Source of the DNA: a virus
Taxonomy: Duplodnaviria > Heunggongvirae > Uroviricota > Caudoviricetes
Direction: 5' to 3' (one strand)
Virus record (IMG/VR): IMGVR_UViG_2802429251_000001
Length of the DNA stretch: 20,174 bases
The notes under the pieces are model-generated. The model was given only the letters and a program-made list of their open reading frames with translations. It was not told where the DNA came from and made no database searches. The number at the start of each line of letters is the position of its first letter. Position 1 is the first letter of the stretch. The position numbers and the translations under genes are program-made. Positions 6,142 through 16,028 of the stretch are shown piece by piece.

Positions 6142-6294
6142 ACCCGCTCCAGAATGTTTTAAACATGCATCTTGCGAACAACTTTAGGCAAACGGTGTTA
6201 GTGGTGAACAAAAAACAATCAAAATCGACACCATAAAAATAAAATCACCGTAATATCAATACATTACAGTAGTGGTGATGACGAATGAAATTTC

Positions 6295-6345
6295 AAAAAC
6301 TAGCCTTTTTCCGCGCCGCTCCCGCCCCGTGGCAGGCCACCCCAC
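6295..6345. other. Putative cos site (cosN-like)
   Basis: Minus-strand sequence ACGGGGCGGGAGCGGCGCGGAAAAAGGCTAGTTTTTGAAATTTC resembles my recollection of lambda cos (ACGGGGCGGCGACCTCGCGGGTTTTCGCTATTTATGAAAATTTTCC). It sits about 180 bp upstream of the small terminase gene, as cosN does for Nu1. GTGGTGA-containing repeats at 6204-6283 could be small-terminase binding sites. Exact cut sites not determinable by eye. Confidence 0.4.
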
Positions 6346-6721
6346 CGGGAGGACCCGTCAGCCTGACAGCTCTGACGAACGTCTGATACAACGCCTTGCA
6401 TGAATGGCATCGGGATAATCCAGAAAGGCATAGCATCGTGCCCACAAGAATCTGTGTAAGTGTCCTGTTTCTTCCCCCCCCGCACAGGACTGGCGAGCAT
6501 GAGGGACAAACCCGCGAACCATAAACGCGGTAAAAACCCGGTGTGCATCGTTTTTGATTATTCCCGCACACTCGCGCAGAAGGAGTTCCCCGTCGGGCTA
6601 CGGTCTCTGTTAATACGGGAATACGGCGACGATACAGCGCATGATGTGTCAGGCTTGAATACCTTTATCCGTTAAAAGGGATATCAGTTAAGCTATCCCG
6701 TGTAGGGTATAAGCCATTATC

Positions 6722-6750
6722 AAAGCCACTCTGTAGGGAGTGGCTTTTGT
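6722..6750 (+). terminator. Rho-independent terminator (plus strand)
   Basis: Perfect 10 bp inverted repeat AAAGCCACTC / GAGTGGCTTT with 6 nt loop, followed by TTTTG. Confidence 0.5.
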
Positions 6751-6757
6751 AATGGCA

Positions 6758-6782
6758 ATAAAAAGCCCCGCGAATGCGAGGC
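6758..6782 (-). terminator. Rho-independent terminator (minus strand), downstream of Rz
   Basis: Minus-strand RNA GCCUCGC-AUUC-GCGGGGC (7 bp stem with one G-U pair) followed by UUUUUAUU. Convergent with the plus-strand terminator at 6722-6750. Confidence 0.45.
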
Positions 6783-6956
6783 TAAATTCTGGTATTTGTA
6801 ATGACTGGCTCTTATCTCAACGCAGCCCCTTACCGCGCGCAAGATGCTCAATATCAAGCATCAGCAATGAGATGTTTAATCTGGATTCACTCCAGAAGTG
6901 ATCACCACCCTGTCTACAGAGCCAGATGTGAAGGATGATAAGTAAAATTATCGCTA

Positions 6957-11569: not shown

Positions 11570-13450
11570 TTAATACTCCGTCACGTTTTCCTGTCGCCAC
11601 GCCTCGTCATATTCCGATTTCGGCATATTGGCGATGTAGCTATATGGCGATCCTGATTCAAGTTGCAGGAACTGGTGCGATTGCTCGTCAAGGAACAACG
11701 GGACACCACCTTCCCAACCTTCGCCGTTACGTTGTTTTTCAAGCATCAAAACAGATGCCGGAGACGCCAGTAGCTGTTCGTCCTTCTCTGACATCTTTTC
11801 ACCACTCTGAACTCTCTGTAACGCTCTCTCGCGAGCCTTGTTACGCCAGATGATGAAAAGGTTGTCTGTCAGGTCTGTTATCGCTCCAGAGCCTTTTACG
11901 TCCATTTTCCCGGTTGGTTTTTCTTCGCTGTCTCCTTTTCGCGAGTGAGTAACGAGAATGACGTGGGAGTTTGTTTTGTTTTTGAAGTCGCAAATCGAGT
12001 CAACAAACGCCTTCTGCCCGTTATAGTCATCGTCGCCTATGCCACATTTCATCAGGCTGTCGATGATGAATAACTGGATCCCGTATCGGCGGCGAGCGTA
12101 GTCGAATATTTCGATCAGCCTGTCGGCTTTCGCCGTTCCGGTCAGGCCAAACACCCAAAGTCTTTCGTCATAAAATTTAAATGCAGAGTCAATTTCCAGC
12201 ACTGGCGGAATCTTGCAGCACGTCGCCTGACGGGTAAGGCGCTTAAGGAGAATACCAGGCTTCAGCTCAAGTGACGCGATGCACGTCTTCACACCCTGAC
12301 GCATTGCCTCAAGTGCCATATGCCCGACAACCTCCGTTTTTCCGTGACCGTTCACACCATTGACCAGCGTCAACTCTGCCTCACGGAACTGGAATTTATC
12401 TGCCAGAGATTCCCACGGTGGATTAAACAGATACTGCTGCTTGCCGTAGAAAGCATTGATAGTGTCCTGGTAAAACTCTCGCGCACTGTAGAGTTCTTCA
12501 GGATCGAAGTAGGATGCCGTGCCGATGTACTGCCAGATTTCATCCTCGGTAACACCGTTCATCAGGCATTCGTTGATGTCTTTGTACGGCAGAGTAACAA
12601 GACGGCAACGATGTTCACCGAGTCGGCTTGCGATTTCCCTTGCGGCTTCACGACCAACATCATCAACGTCCATCGAGATGAATATTTCCTCAAACCTGTC
12701 GAGATTGTGATACTCAAACTCAATCCACTGCTGCTTAGCGCCTTTCCCGCCACCAAACGGCACGGATAACGCCGAGATGCCGTATTGCGCATAGCTCATA
12801 CAATCAATTTCGCCTTCGCAAAGTACAACCGCCCTCACGCCAGCGTCCAGAGCCTGCCATCCGAACAGACAAGGTTCGCAATCACCTTCTGCCATAATGA
12901 CTTTCTTCCCGTCCGGGCGCTCAGTGCTGATTCGCTTGACCTGCAACAACTCACCATCGCGTTTGTACGGAATCACCAGAGCATCCAGTTCCCGCTCTCC
13001 ATTCCACACCTTGCCGCTGACAACCTCGTAGCGCTTTACGATTTCTGGCGATATGCCACGCGATTGCAGGTACTCAAGATGGGATTCTGTTCTGGTAACG
13101 TAGCGGGCGATTTTCTTGCGATCAGGTCTGGAGAATTTCTTCTCACGTTTGGCATCGAAATGGTGATCGTCATCCTTGATACCGAGAAATGCTTTCGCTT
13201 CCTGCATAGCCTGATGCAGGTTAATTCCACGACATGCCATCCACAAATCAAGCATGTCACCGCCGTCTCCCTCAGCGAAATCAGCCCATTTTTTCTTGCC
13301 GCTAAGGTTGACCTTAAGGCTGTTTCCCTTGTCACCGTTGACGTTACCGGCAACCCACTCATGCCCCTCTTTCTTGCCATTTGGCAACAGGTGCGGAGCC
13401 ACCCTGTCAACCTGCGCCCAAAGCAGGTCGCTAAGTTCACTTGGCGTCAT
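11570..13450 (-). CDS. Replicative primase-helicase (Toprim domain plus DnaB-like helicase domain)
   Basis: 626 aa with Toprim-like acidic motifs (VVLCEGEIDCMS, FISMDVDDVGREAA), Walker A (NGVNGHGKTEV), Walker B-like (LFIIDSLMK) and HSRK. Occupies the position of lambda P. Confidence 0.8.
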   Translation of the reverse strand: MTPSELSDLLWAQVDRVAPHLLPNGKKEGHEWVAGNVNGDKGNSLKVNLSGKKKWADFAEGDGGDMLDLWMACRGINLHQAMQEAKAFLGIKDDDHHFDAKREKKFSRPDRKKIARYVTRTESHLEYLQSRGISPEIVKRYEVVSGKVWNGERELDALVIPYKRDGELLQVKRISTERPDGKKVIMAEGDCEPCLFGWQALDAGVRAVVLCEGEIDCMSYAQYGISALSVPFGGGKGAKQQWIEFEYHNLDRFEEIFISMDVDDVGREAAREIASRLGEHRCRLVTLPYKDINECLMNGVTEDEIWQYIGTASYFDPEELYSAREFYQDTINAFYGKQQYLFNPPWESLADKFQFREAELTLVNGVNGHGKTEVVGHMALEAMRQGVKTCIASLELKPGILLKRLTRQATCCKIPPVLEIDSAFKFYDERLWVFGLTGTAKADRLIEIFDYARRRYGIQLFIIDSLMKCGIGDDDYNGQKAFVDSICDFKNKTNSHVILVTHSRKGDSEEKPTGKMDVKGSGAITDLTDNLFIIWRNKARERALQRVQSGEKMSEKDEQLLASPASVLMLEKQRNGEGWEGGVPLFLDEQSHQFLQLESGSPYSYIANMPKSEYDEAWRQENVTEY

Positions 13451-13554
13451 GATTCCCTCAGATTGAGATTTTTAAACCAGAAATCGACAAACGAAATACT
13501 TAACCAGCCGTGGTTATAACCAGCGACCAGTAGCGATTTGATTTTTGATTTCAT
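13447..13554 (-). CDS. Small hypothetical ORF (35 aa) between O-like gene and primase-helicase
   Basis: Found by hand: MKSKIKSLLVAGYNHGWLSISFVDFWFKNLNLRES. ATG at 13554 lies 3 nt after the O-like stop; its TGA overlaps the helicase ATG (ATGA). AGGTGA 3 nt upstream. Could be a coupling artefact. Confidence 0.3.
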   Translation of the reverse strand: MKSKIKSLLVAGYNHGWLSISFVDFWFKNLNLRES

Positions 13555-13557
13555 GGT

Positions 13558-14418
13558 TCACCTGTCGAAAAACACGTAGCCAGTTTTCGATACGGTGATT
13601 GCGGATGATGGTTTGGATTGTGGTTGAATGGTTTCTGGCTTCTCGTCGTTCCAGCGTTGACCGTTCAGGTAGCTCGATGGTAACAACCTGTCGAATCCGA
13701 ACTGCTTACCATTCCTGCATGCGATGTCTTCTGCCAGCATCGTGGCAAACTCGCTTGCCGTACCCCTGGTAGTTTTACGCCATTCCCTGAACTGTGTTCT
13801 GAATGCCGAAGCTGCGTTTTTCTTCCCGGCCTTCCGCATGCCTGCACACCAGAATATTTCCTCGAATGCCTTGTCGGTTTCTTCGTGACGGTCAGGTGAT
13901 TTTTCACACTCCGTCCGAACACTTTCGGACATAGTGTTTTTATTATTTCTTTTTTCTTTTGTAATAGTTTCTTTTGTGTGTCCCTGTTTTGGTGACAGCG
14001 CTGTCACCGTTTTGGTGACACTTTTTGTCACCAATGCAGTGACATTATCACCAGAGTAGTGACACCCTTCGATTTGCCATTCCTCGATGTTCTTGTTAGG
14101 CCCGATTTGCTGGCCTTCGCGAAGGATAACCTTCATCGCGATAAGCTCATTCTTGGCCTTGTTTACCTTCTGTCTTGGCAGCCTGGTAATTTGAGCTAAC
14201 TGACTATCAGAGATGCGATCCATCTTTTTACCGTAGCCGTATGTTTTACGGCATATGGCGTGGGCAACCTTGCTCTGATTTTTCGTTAAATCTGCGCCGA
14301 TAAGCTCTTCATACAGGGCATTTGCAAGACGGGTATAACCATCTTCAACTTCTGCCACACGACGCTCCACAGGCCGTTGTGAAGGCCTTAAATGTGTTAC
14401 GGTTGCAAGATTACTCAT
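13558..14418 (-). CDS. Replication initiator, lambda O-like N-terminal domain
   Basis: 286 aa. N-terminal motifs [44 protein letters not shown] parallel recalled lambda O (DDGYARL, ADLTKRQFKV, RKTYGWNKPMDRITDSQL, GPNKNISEW). Contains an internal iteron cluster. Confidence 0.85.
13934..14065. repeat. Putative origin of replication: AT-rich tract plus palindromic iterons inside the O-like gene
   Basis: AT-rich run 13934-13980, then GGTGACAGCGCTGTCACC (13991-14008, perfect palindrome), GGTGACACTTTTTGTCACC (14013-14031), and further GTGACA copies at 14040 and 14059. Core motifs spaced about 11 bp apart. Same architecture as the lambda ori inside O. Confidence 0.55.
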
Positions 14419-14567: not shown

Positions 14568-14644
14568 GTGGATTGATCCAGTAATGACCTCAGAATTCCA
14601 TCTGGATTTGTTCAGAACGCTCGGTTGCCGCCGGGCGTTTTTTA
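14568..14644 (+). ncRNA. oop: oop antisense RNA (lambda type)
   Basis: Plus strand GTGGATTGATCCAGTAATGACCTCAGAATTCCATCTGGATTTGTTCAGAACGCTCGGTTGCCGCCGGGCGTTTTTTATT matches recalled 77 nt lambda oop RNA with a few substitutions and ends in its terminator hairpin plus U-tract. Antisense to the cII 3' end. Confidence 0.7.
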
Positions 14645-14883
14645 TTGGTGAGAATCGAAGCAACTTGTCGTGCCAATCGAGCCATGTCGTCGTCAACGAC
14701 ACCCCATTCAAGAACAGCAAGCAGCATTGAGAACTTTGGAATCCAGTCCCTCTTCCACCTGCTGATCTGCGACTTATCAACTCCCACAGCTTCCGCTGTC
14801 TTCTCAGTTCCAAGCATTGCGATTTTGTTAAGCAACGCACTCTCGATTCGTAGAGCCTCGTTGCGTTTGTTTGCACGAACCAT
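14590..14883 (-). CDS. cII: Transcriptional activator cII (lambda type)
   Basis: [97 protein letters not shown], essentially lambda cII (97 aa). Lambda-like RBS TAAGGAAATACTTACATATG. The track ORF is an N-terminal extension. Confidence 0.95.
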
Positions 14884-14940
14884 ATGTAAGTATTTCCTTA
14901 ACAAATAAGAAGTTATGCGCATCAACTTATGCGCGTTGTA

Positions 14941-14985
14941 TTCCCGCATTTCGGCGGGAATGAGGACCATGACTGTTAAAGAGCA
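14941..14985 (-). promoter_or_regulatory. nutR (boxA plus boxB)
   Basis: Minus-strand RNA UGCUCUUUAACA (consensus-like boxA) followed 12 nt later by UUCCCGCCGAAAUGCGGGAA (hairpin). Lies between cro and cII. The same boxB sequence recurs at nutL. Confidence 0.65.
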
Positions 14986-14991
14986 ATTTGC

Positions 14992-15177
14992 TTATGCCGC
15001 TTTGCGGTAAGCGCTTTCTTGATACTTCAGGGCGCCAGCTGTAACGACTTCCAGTCGATAGGCGTCTTTCTCTGGGATGACTTCCTTCCACTGAGAGACT
15101 GCTGCGTCGCTAATGCCTAACGCTTTAGCTACAGCACGCTGGGTTCCGAAGTGGTCGATAACATCTTTCTTGTACAT
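14992..15177 (-). CDS. cro: Cro repressor (P22 type)
   Basis: 61 aa, MYKKDVIDHFGTQRAVAKALGISDAAVSQWKEVIPEKDAYRLEVVTAGALKYQESAYRKAA, matches recalled P22 Cro. Divergent from the c2 repressor gene. Confidence 0.9.
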   Translation of the reverse strand: MYKKDVIDHFGTQRAVAKALGISDAAVSQWKEVIPEKDAYRLEVVTAGALKYQESAYRKAA

Positions 15178-15189
15178 AGACTCGCTCCG

Positions 15190-15258
15190 AAATTAAAGAA
15201 CACTTAAATTATCCACTAAAGGAATCTTAAGTCAAGTTTATTTAAGATGTCTTAACTA
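15190..15258. promoter_or_regulatory. OR operator cluster with PR (minus strand) and PRM (plus strand)
   Basis: Three sites resembling the P22 operator consensus ATTTAAGA-NN-TCTTAAAT at about 15192-15209, 15215-15232 and 15240-15257. PR on minus strand: -35 TTGACT (plus 15230-15235), 17 bp spacer, -10 ATAATT (plus 15207-15212). c2 ATG at 15258 abuts the operators, suggesting a leaderless mRNA. Confidence 0.7.
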
Positions 15259-15908
15259 TGAAAACTCAATTGATGGGAGAGCGCATTCGCGCTCGGAGAA
15301 AAGAACTCAAGATCAGGCAGGCCGCACTTGGAAAGATGGTCGGCGTGTCTAATGTTGCCATATCTCAGTGGGAACGCTCTGAGACAGAGCCAAATGGAGA
15401 GAATCTTCTCGCCCTGGCTAATGCGTTGAAGTGTTCCCCTGACTATCTGATGAAAGGAGAGGGAAGTCTTTCAAACATTGCCTATCACAGTAGGCATGAT
15501 CCAAGAGGGTCATACCCTCTGATTAGCTGGGTGAGCGCAGGATGCTGGATGGAAGCTGTAGAACCATATCATAAGCGTGCAATAGATAACTGGTACGATA
15601 CAACCGTAGACTGTTCAGAAGATTCGTTTTGGTTGGACGTGAAAGGAGACTCAATGACGGCTCCGGCCGGTCTCAGTATCCCTGAAGGAATGATAATACT
15701 CGTCGATCCTGAAGTAGAGCCGCGTAACGGGAAACTGGTAGTTGCAAAGCTCGAAGGAGAAAACGAGGCAACTTTCAAGAAGTTAGTTATTGATGCAGGC
15801 AGGAAGTTTCTAAAACCACTTAACCCACAATATCCGATGATCGAGATCAACGGAAACTGCAAAATCATCGGCGTAGTTGTCGATGCAAAACTAGCAAACC
15901 TTCCATAA
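15258..15908 (+). CDS. c2: Prophage repressor c2 (P22 type, HTH plus LexA-like S24 autocleavage domain)
   Basis: 216 aa, MKTQLMGERIRARRKELKIRQAALGKMVGVSNVAISQWERSETEPNGENLL...GDSMTAPAG...KLVVAKLEGENEATFKKLVIDAGRKFLKPLNPQYPMIEINGNCKIIGVVVDAKLANLP, matches recalled P22 C2 with a few substitutions. Confidence 0.95.
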   Translation: MKTQLMGERIRARRKELKIRQAALGKMVGVSNVAISQWERSETEPNGENLLALANALKCSPDYLMKGEGSLSNIAYHSRHDPRGSYPLISWVSAGCWMEAVEPYHKRAIDNWYDTTVDCSEDSFWLDVKGDSMTAPAGLSIPEGMIILVDPEVEPRNGKLVVAKLEGENEATFKKLVIDAGRKFLKPLNPQYPMIEINGNCKIIGVVVDAKLANLP

Positions 15909-15932: not shown

Positions 15933-15970
15933 TTCCTTTAAAAATCAAAGCCAAACTTAAGTTACGAAAG

Positions 15971-16028
15971 AAAATTTAAGTTTTCTTCAAAAATACTCTT
16001 GACCATTAATTAAAGAGATCTTAAATTT
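15971..16028 (+). promoter_or_regulatory. OL operators and PL promoter
   Basis: P22-consensus-like operator sites at about 15973-15990 and 16008-16025 (AATTAAAGAGATCTTAAATT). PL: -35 TTGACC (15999-16004), 17 bp spacer, -10 TAAATT (16022-16027). Confidence 0.6.

Follow-up and report, generated by a model that had tools for sequence, protein, structure and literature searches.

We found that the window, the whole stretch of 20,174 nucleotides of viral DNA analysed here, carries on its minus strand an array of four 19-bp dyad repeats of the form TGTCACC-N5-GGTGACA, and that the region around them is very probably a vegetative (theta-mode) replication origin of a lambdoid prophage, of the oriLambda type and lying within the linker region of the gene for its initiator. 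This reading is drawn from sequence comparison. It follows from the position of the repeats in the O gene, the lambda geometry of the array, the signs of selection on the DNA itself, the co-variation of the iterons with the N-terminal domain (N-domain) of O, the modularity of the locus and the presence of a true primase-helicase as partner. The features are listed in Table 1.

Table 1. Positions of the features of the origin region and of the neighbouring genes in the window
Feature	Position	Strand	Remarks
Primase-helicase gene	11570..13450	-	626 aa; Toprim plus DnaB/RecA-like helicase; T7 gp4/Twinkle family
35-aa ORF	13447..13554	-	between O and helicase; position of ES18 gp60; phrog_21848, E=4e-26
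O-like replication initiator gene	13558..14418	-	286 aa; Phage_rep_O
Imperfect 32-bp palindrome	13906..13937	-	ACACTATGTCCGAAAGTGTTCGGACGGAGTGT; immediately after the AT-rich tract; travels with the C-module
AT-rich tract	13934..13978	-	45 bp, 80% A+T; CACAAAAGAAACTATTACAAAAGAAAAAAGAAATAATAAAAACAC; directly follows IT4
AT core	13946-13978		CACAAAAGAAACTATTACAAAAGAAAAAAGAAA
Iteron array	13979-14064	-	four 19-bp dyad repeats
Iteron 4 (IT4)	13979..13997	-	TGTCACCAAAACAGGGACA; right half degenerate, resembling lambda ITN4 AAAACAGGGGGACA
Perfect 18-bp palindrome	13991-14008		GGTGACAGCGCTGTCACC
Iteron 3 (IT3)	14002..14020	-	TGTCACCAAAACGGTGACA; best dyad; AAAAC centre as in lambda iterons
Second inverted pair	14014-14032		GGTGACACTTTTTGTCACC
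Iteron 2 (IT2)	14026..14044	-	TGTCACTGCATTGGTGACA; zero mismatches to TGTCAC-N7-GTGACA; aligns with lambda ITN2
Iteron 1 (IT1)	14046..14064	-	TGTCACTACTCTGGTGATA on the O-coding strand; furthest from the AT-rich tract; aligns with lambda ITN1
cII	14590-14970	-	upstream of O, same strand
P22-type cro	14992-15177	-	upstream of O, same strand
pR-like promoter	15208..15235	-	TTGACT-16-GATAAT; between repressor and cro; consensus match only
S24 repressor	15258-15908		divergent from O

The region is the early-right arm of a lambdoid prophage. Transcription from the pR-like promoter would run through cro, cII, O and the origin, and an oop terminator identical to that of lambda is located upstream. 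Beyond the primase-helicase gene lie NinB, NinX, Q, the lysis genes, terminase and portal. No match to Rfam was obtained at the gathering threshold anywhere in the window.

The O protein contains the Phage_rep_O domain (Pfam PF04492) at aa 20–114, covering model positions 1–95 of 95 (E=1.2e-37), and is matched by phrog_277 ('replication initiation O-like') over aa 1–174 (7e-55) and by phrog_33384 over aa 157–286. Its layout is an N-domain (∼aa 1–118), a linker encoded by the origin and an ES18-type C-domain (∼aa 157–286). The array lies between the Phage_rep_O domain and the C-domain, which places the putative origin inside the initiator gene. A PDB sequence search with O gave no relative, and single-sequence AlphaFold2 modelling of aa 1–125 (mean pLDDT 45) yielded no reliable structure of the N-domain.

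The repeat search of the window returned families of 19–20 nt units together with the perfect 18-bp palindrome. The four units start at nt 355, 375, 399 and 422 of the gene, with start-to-start spacing of 20/24/23 bp. The original prediction had pointed to an AT-rich tract of roughly 45 bp, a perfect 18-bp palindrome, a second inverted pair and two more GTGACA copies, and all of these are present (Table 1; the additional copies are at 14039 and 14059). Two degenerate half-sites escaped it, TGTCCC (13979) and TATCACC (14046), and the iterons number four. The spacing of about 11 bp that it gave for the core motifs is actually an alternation of about 10–13 bp between half-site starts.

Over the whole window, GTGACA is not enriched (14 sites observed, 10.4 expected), and six of these 14 sites fall within 73 bp. 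Among 2000 dinucleotide-preserving shuffles, the largest GTGACA cluster per 75 bp averaged 1.29 with a maximum of 3, and none had six. With at most one mismatch allowed, TGTCAC-N7-GTGACA occurred four times in the 20 kb, all at 13979–14064; no other iteron cluster was found by this search of the window.

The palindromic repeats of the original prediction are all there, but were parsed in the wrong register. According to that register, the binding units would be the outward-facing palindromes GGTGACA-GCGC-TGTCACC and GGTGACA-CTTTT-TGTCACC, and a dimer would straddle the inter-iteron spacer. The palindrome at 13991–14008 is indeed more perfectly palindromic than the single 19-bp units, which are self-complementary at 10–14 of their 19 positions. 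However, pairing the half-sites in this way gives inconsistent spacers of 1, 5 and 4 bp and leaves an unpaired half-site at either end of the array, whereas the 19-bp register has a constant centre of 5 bp. The GCGC centre is also among the least conserved columns, being ACCC, GCCA, GGGG, GGGT, AGGG or GCGT in relatives, and is replaced by GGGT or GCCC in 19 of 80 IMG/VR loci. Moreover, it is the 19-bp register that aligns with the annotated and footprinted iterons of lambda (PMC7466680). We consider the outward-facing arrangement very unlikely; the unit is the 19-bp internal dyad, and the perfect palindrome is the junction of two such units.

In experimentally defined oriLambda, a 38-bp AT-rich sequence is joined to four 18-bp iterons (PMC3349717). 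The iterons are inverted repeats to which O binds as a dimer (PMC7466680), origin binding by O resides in its N-terminal 162 aa (PMC2629481), and the AT element of ∼40 bp melts at initiation (PMC12661323). The iterons annotated in the lambda record start at 39034, 39054, 39078 and 39101, a spacing of 20/24/23 bp that is equal to that of the window, and a MAFFT alignment put the two arrays in register, column for column. The AAAAC centre of the lambda iterons recurs in IT3 and IT4. In this lineage the centres of IT1 (TACTC) and IT2 (TGCAT) lack the central A-tract, a feature linked to intrinsic bending; this is a point against the reading, as is the degenerate right half of IT4. The A-tract is present in all four units of more distant members of the TGTCACC class. 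Other likenesses to lambda are the location in the O linker, the palindrome after the AT-rich tract and the order pR-cro-cII-O. The lambda ori architecture within the O linker, as originally predicted, is thus borne out by the Phage_rep_O host ORF, the spacing and the AT core, and in a more literal sense than the prediction had put it.

The differences from lambda are equally clear. The half-sites are TGTCACC/GGTGACA in the window versus ATCCCTC/GAGGGA in lambda, the N-domain of O is only 53% identical to its lambda counterpart, and the C-domain is unrelated to that of lambda. The locus departs from a strict lambda O-P module, as it has an ES18-type C-domain and no P homologue downstream of O; the next large gene is the primase-helicase, in agreement with the earlier proposal that such an enzyme takes the place of P. 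Origins of the P22 gene 18/HK97 type have the same architecture, with a rep_origin annotated inside gene 18 and a ACACAAAAGACA element in common with the window. Their half-sites are TTTACC (P22) and TTAGCC (HK97-type), and their partner, unlike that of the window, is a DnaB-like helicase.

The AT maximum of the 20-kb window is in the region of the AT-rich tract, the most AT-rich 45-mer (84%) starting at 13931. On the O-coding strand, purines make up 76% of the tract, and its core has 32 of 33 bases as in the lambda AT-rich element. By analogy with lambda, we presume that the tract is the DNA-unwinding element. The imperfect palindrome at 13906–13937 would fold as single-stranded DNA with -11.9 kcal/mol (z=-7.4). 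It is shared with ES18, weakened in three of the prophage loci (L011–L013) and present as a compensatory variant in another (L022). Although the palindrome is strong in the window and in ES18, its retention in L012 and L013 is poor and its compensation in L022 only partial, and we rejected it as an origin element of conserved function.

Scanning genomes with the N-domain of O gave 27 prophage loci with 39–100% identity, in Shimwellia, Pseudescherichia, Citrobacter, Pantoea, Serratia, Xenorhabdus, Photorhabdus, Providencia, Rahnella, Tatumella, Erwinia, Arsenophonus and other hosts. TGTCACC was found in all 24 genomic loci having at least 66% N-domain identity and a readable ori region; this count includes L024, whose O gene is truncated after the array, and leaves out L035 (67% identical), which is disrupted before ori. 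These 24 loci have 3–8 TGTCAC-N7-GTGACA units each, usually four at 20/24/23. A locus with 48% N-domain identity had the HK97-type TTAGCC/GGCTAA unit. The exact IT3-N4-IT4-AT-core string was present in at least 119 IMG/VR contigs.

We measured conservation over 20 distinct arrays, in which IT3 is nearly invariant. The half-site columns had 1.78 bits (37 of 56 invariant) compared to 1.17 bits in the adjacent coding DNA. As the compared sequences are phylogenetically related, such raw counts overstate independence, and the contrast at codon position 3, 1.69 bits in the half-sites versus 0.73 bits in the coding region of the N-domain, serves as the internal control. This high conservation at codon position 3 indicates selection on the DNA itself.

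These data also bear on the possibility that the repeats are a passive by-product of a low-complexity protein linker, or a relic origin, and that replication starts elsewhere. The array does encode a V-T-K/A-rich linker peptide of O, and some related prophages with a disrupted O keep the array (L024; L035 is also disrupted). However, a peptide repeat explains neither the dyad symmetry of the DNA nor the conservation at codon position 3, and the exact 20/24/23 bp spacing of lambda and the tracking of half-sites with the N-domain would also be left unexplained. Furthermore, the same array is present in isolated plaque-forming phages (mEp043, Sf101, SEN22 and the PhiR12 series), and the window has no second iteron cluster. 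We regard a by-product or relic as very unlikely, and a functional origin of the oriLambda type remains our preferred reading.

The half-site follows the class of the O N-domain. We observed about 10 N-domain classes, each with its own half-site. Listed with their N-domain identity to the window, the representatives are as follows: a Proteus phage (68.6%), TGTCACC; Citrobacter Omnitron (64.7%), TGTATCC/GGGAACA; Midgardsormr38 (63.8%), TGTTACC/TGTTCCC; phiEt88 (59.5%), TGTTACC; Hafnia Pocitis76 (54.2%), TGTCTCC; lambda (53%), ATCCCTC; P22 (51%), TTTACC; mEp213 (45%), TTAGCC (HK97-like); PhiR26_1 (39%), TTACCYG; and Pseudomonas PAJU2 (39%), GTGCCG. All the half-site classes keep the 7-N5-7 unit, with ACACAAAAGA at the end. 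That each protein of the O family binds iterons of its own, located within the gene that encodes it, has been described (PMC8022706). The co-variation of half-site and N-domain class supports the earlier suggestion that an iteron unlike that of lambda implies a different initiator specificity. A scan for specificity-determining residues gave only P81, at the start of a class-fixed segment of the N-domain, as setting the TGTCACC class apart from each of its four neighbouring classes; H120 is simply a residue that iteron 1 encodes. We set P81 and H120 aside as a pointer to the recognition helix, the signal being too weak.

The same origin is found in several known phages. The whole O gene of mEp043, Sf101, SEN22 and vB_EcoP-720R6, including ori, is 98.8–99.7% identical to that of the window and is followed by the same helicase. 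The records of mEp043 and its kin annotate O with no origin annotated, and the Sf101 paper does not mention an origin (PMC4159516). In a Shimwellia prophage (L010), the N-domain is 100% identical, and the four units and the helicase are those of the window. In the PhiR12-series coliphages, the N-domain, the four iterons and the AT core are 100% identical to the window, but a lambda-type O C-domain and then lambda P and Ren follow.

The latter case illustrates that the locus is modular. BLAST matches to the O gene break at ori: those restricted to the C-half (ES18, epsilon34, g341c, Stx phages) end at window positions 13942–13991, and those restricted to the N-half (PhiR12 series) start at 13946. 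The AT-rich tract is therefore also the mosaic joint between the N-module and the C-module of O, as the BLAST blocks end at 13942, 13946 and 13991. The ES18/epsilon34/g341c module comprises gp59 (O-like), gp60 and gp61 (primase/helicase), with a rep_origin annotated 'similar to lambda ori', and its O C-terminal half is about 93–95% identical to the window in DNA. The last 110 aa of the ES18-type C-domain are 99% identical to the O of the window, ES18 gp61 is 93.9% identical to its primase-helicase, and both the palindrome and the 35-aa ORF are shared. The N-domain and iterons of ES18 are of the lambda type, unlike those of the window, and the modules are joined in the common AT core. As in the ES18-type module, O with a C-domain of this type is followed in the window by a small ORF and then by a T7 gp4-like primase-helicase.

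All four combinations of the modules exist. Lambda has CCCTC iterons with P, and ES18 (rep_origin annotated) has CCCTC iterons with the primase-helicase. TGTCACC iterons are combined with P in PhiR12_1 and with the primase-helicase in the window, mEp043, Sf101 and SEN22.

The class of the O C-domain predicted the downstream partner in all 91 loci where both could be classified, with no discordant case. The 22 genomic loci comprised window-type C-domains with primase-helicase (7), lambda-type with P (5) and P22/HK97-type with a DnaB-like helicase (10). The corresponding numbers among 69 IMG/VR loci were 53, 15 and 1; the set of 80 IMG/VR loci was chosen by the exact IT3-IT4 string, so that only IT1/IT2 and the partner genes are independent there.

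The partner in the window has the domains Toprim_2, AAA_25 and DnaB_C and belongs to phrog_239 ('DNA primase/helicase', 1.6e-171). It also matches the structures of T7 gp4 (PDB 5ikn/6n7i, E about 1e-23) and Twinkle (7e-14). It is presumably the replicative helicase recruited to the origin at 13934–14064. The start of its gene overlaps the stop of the 35-aa ORF, which represents a conserved phage family.

The placement of a multifunctional primase-helicase directly downstream could also suggest that this enzyme itself recognises the repeats and that O is not the origin-recognition factor. The alpha protein of phage P4 binds its own ori iterons in this manner, and the P4 type I iterons, TGTTCACC, superficially resemble TGTCACC. 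However, ES18 has a 93.9% identical enzyme and yet no TGTCAC-N7-GTGACA units, its locus having lambda-type ones. Conversely, the same four iterons occur with lambda P and without the primase-helicase in PhiR12_1 and in 15 IMG/VR loci. The helicase of the window is also of the T7 gp4/Twinkle family. As the iteron type is independent of the helicase in ES18, PhiR12_1 and the IMG/VR loci, the P4-alpha-like model is refuted, and we assign it only a negligible likelihood. Recognition of the iterons by the N-domain of O is the reading that we retain.

By homology with lambda, initiation may proceed as follows. Transcription from pR would express O, and dimers of its N-terminal domain would occupy the four 19-bp dyad iterons, wrapping this DNA into an O-some, the stress of which would melt the adjacent strand-asymmetric AT-rich tract of ∼45 bp. 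The analogy makes binding of O to the iterons, O-some formation and melting of the tract highly likely steps. The ES18-type C-terminal domain of O would then recruit the T7 gp4-like primase-helicase of the phage to the bubble, replacing the P-DnaB complex, and the conserved 35-aa ORF may assist this recruitment. We infer the role of the C-domain from its perfect association with the partner gene. The literature searched contained no documented delivery of a T7-type ring helicase by an O-type initiator, and for O plus primase-helicase modules it held genome descriptions only, with no experimental work.

Much of this was already known, namely the architecture, the rule that every O-family protein has iterons peculiar to it (PMC8022706) and the pairing of O with a primase-helicase in one module (ES18 record; PMC2629481; PMC10307801). 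The origin is of an ordinary, well-understood lambdoid kind, and the established picture of lambdoid replication is unchanged. No description of the TGTCACC iteron class was found in the literature searched.

We tentatively propose, with slightly less than even confidence, that TGTCACC-N5-GGTGACA defines a replication-specificity class of its own in the lambda O family, widespread in prophages of Enterobacterales (at least 119 IMG/VR contigs, >12 genera). According to this proposal, a T7 gp4-type primase-helicase that loads itself would here be brought directly to the O-some by the O C-domain, and initiation would in that case require neither the host proteins DnaB, DnaC and DnaG nor the removal of a loader by DnaK/DnaJ/GrpE. 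The AT core of ∼33 bp would act both as the unwinding element and as a homologous joint for shuffling origin-recognition and helicase-recruitment modules.

The assignment supplies the origin annotation that is missing from the records of a family of prophages and phages common in enterobacteria (mEp043, Sf101, SEN22 and the PhiR12 series). It also defines a replication-specificity group, which bears on phage-phage interference, the viability of hybrids and the design of lambdoid replicon vectors. The graded half-sites TGTCACC, TGTTACC, TGTCTCC and ATCCCTC, in a fixed 7-N5-7 frame with 20/24/23 phasing, form a natural data set for the co-evolution of initiator and site. Finally, the perfect association between C-domain and partner suggests that the O C-domain is the adaptor that decides which helicase system is used.

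Comparison of the O proteins (Phage_rep_O-family initiators) from related loci pointed to residue P81 of the window protein as a candidate specificity determinant. Proline is fixed at this position in all 26 sequences of the class sharing the window's TGTCACC half-site, and serine occupies it in all four neighbouring specificity classes, the relatives with other half-sites. P81 is the sole position of the O N-domain that is fixed in the TGTCACC class yet different in these four, and it opens a 12-residue class-fixed segment.

The number of iterons differs inside the TGTCACC class: eight units are present in the Arsenophonus endosymbiont of Bemisia tabaci (locus L033), and three each in Photorhabdus kayaii (L025) and Pantoea eucrina (L028). 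In Providencia alcalifaciens (L024), where the O gene is truncated to 178 aa and the partner gene is missing, the AT tract and the full set of four iterons persist, so the locus has the appearance of a prophage origin in decay.

Features around the origin in the window
Feature	Coordinates	Strand	Remark
Primase-helicase gene	11570-13450	minus	
35-aa ORF	13447-13554	minus	between O and the primase-helicase gene
Imperfect palindrome, 32 bp	13906-13937		directly adjoins the AT tract
Codon of O residue P81	about 14176-14178		
Terminator hairpin	14614-14641	plus	antisense to the cII 3' end

The window reads, on the minus strand, cro, cII, O, helicase, nin, Q, lysis, small and large terminase, and portal, which is the order of a prophage or of a circular form, running across cos (about 6200-6900). 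The hairpin beside cII is identical in sequence to the lambda oop terminator (CGCTCGGTTGCCGCCGGGCGTTTTTTAT), implying that a conserved OOP antisense RNA would adjoin the origin. Rfam at its gathering threshold gave no report anywhere in the window. Over 45 bp, an A+T content of 80% is also reached at two other places, 15953-15986 and about 16271, both just past the repressor gene, where pL/nutL is presumed to lie.

The stop of the 35-aa ORF overlaps the start of the primase-helicase gene, and its product matches phrog_21848 (E=4e-26). ES18 has the annotated gp60 at the corresponding position, and in mEp043 this ORF is not annotated. The product could be an accessory factor for the O/helicase module. 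By eye, we saw no Cys4 zinc-ribbon motif of the T7 gp4 kind in the N-terminal ~100 aa of the primase-helicase, and its PDB alignments to gp4 begin only at residue 191-192.

The palindrome following the AT tract stands out in an ssDNA fold (z=-7.4, -11.9 kcal/mol). Most of the C-module types compared, that is, types of the C-terminal half of O, carry their own palindrome 34-47 nt past the ACAAAAGA anchor, which is ATTCGTCAGAGAATTCTGGCGAAT in lambda and CCCCCTTACCCCCTAAAGGGGG in the P22/HK97/phiEt88 type. Among the window-type relatives, it is weakened in L011 and almost gone in L012 and L013; in L022 it takes the form of a compensatory variant, GAGCGAA...TTCGCTC.

The BLAST blocks of the O N-module (the presumed origin-recognition half) and the C-module end at 13942-13991, within the AT core and the right half of the fourth iteron, IT4. 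This right half (AAAACAGGGACA) resembles the fourth lambda iteron, ITN4 (AAAACAGGGGGACA), and the lambda record marks recombination points just beyond the lambda AT tract, at 39157/39158 and 39165/39166. The interval 13942-13991 is the mosaic joint of the O modules, and the common AT core appears to serve as the crossover site in module shuffling.
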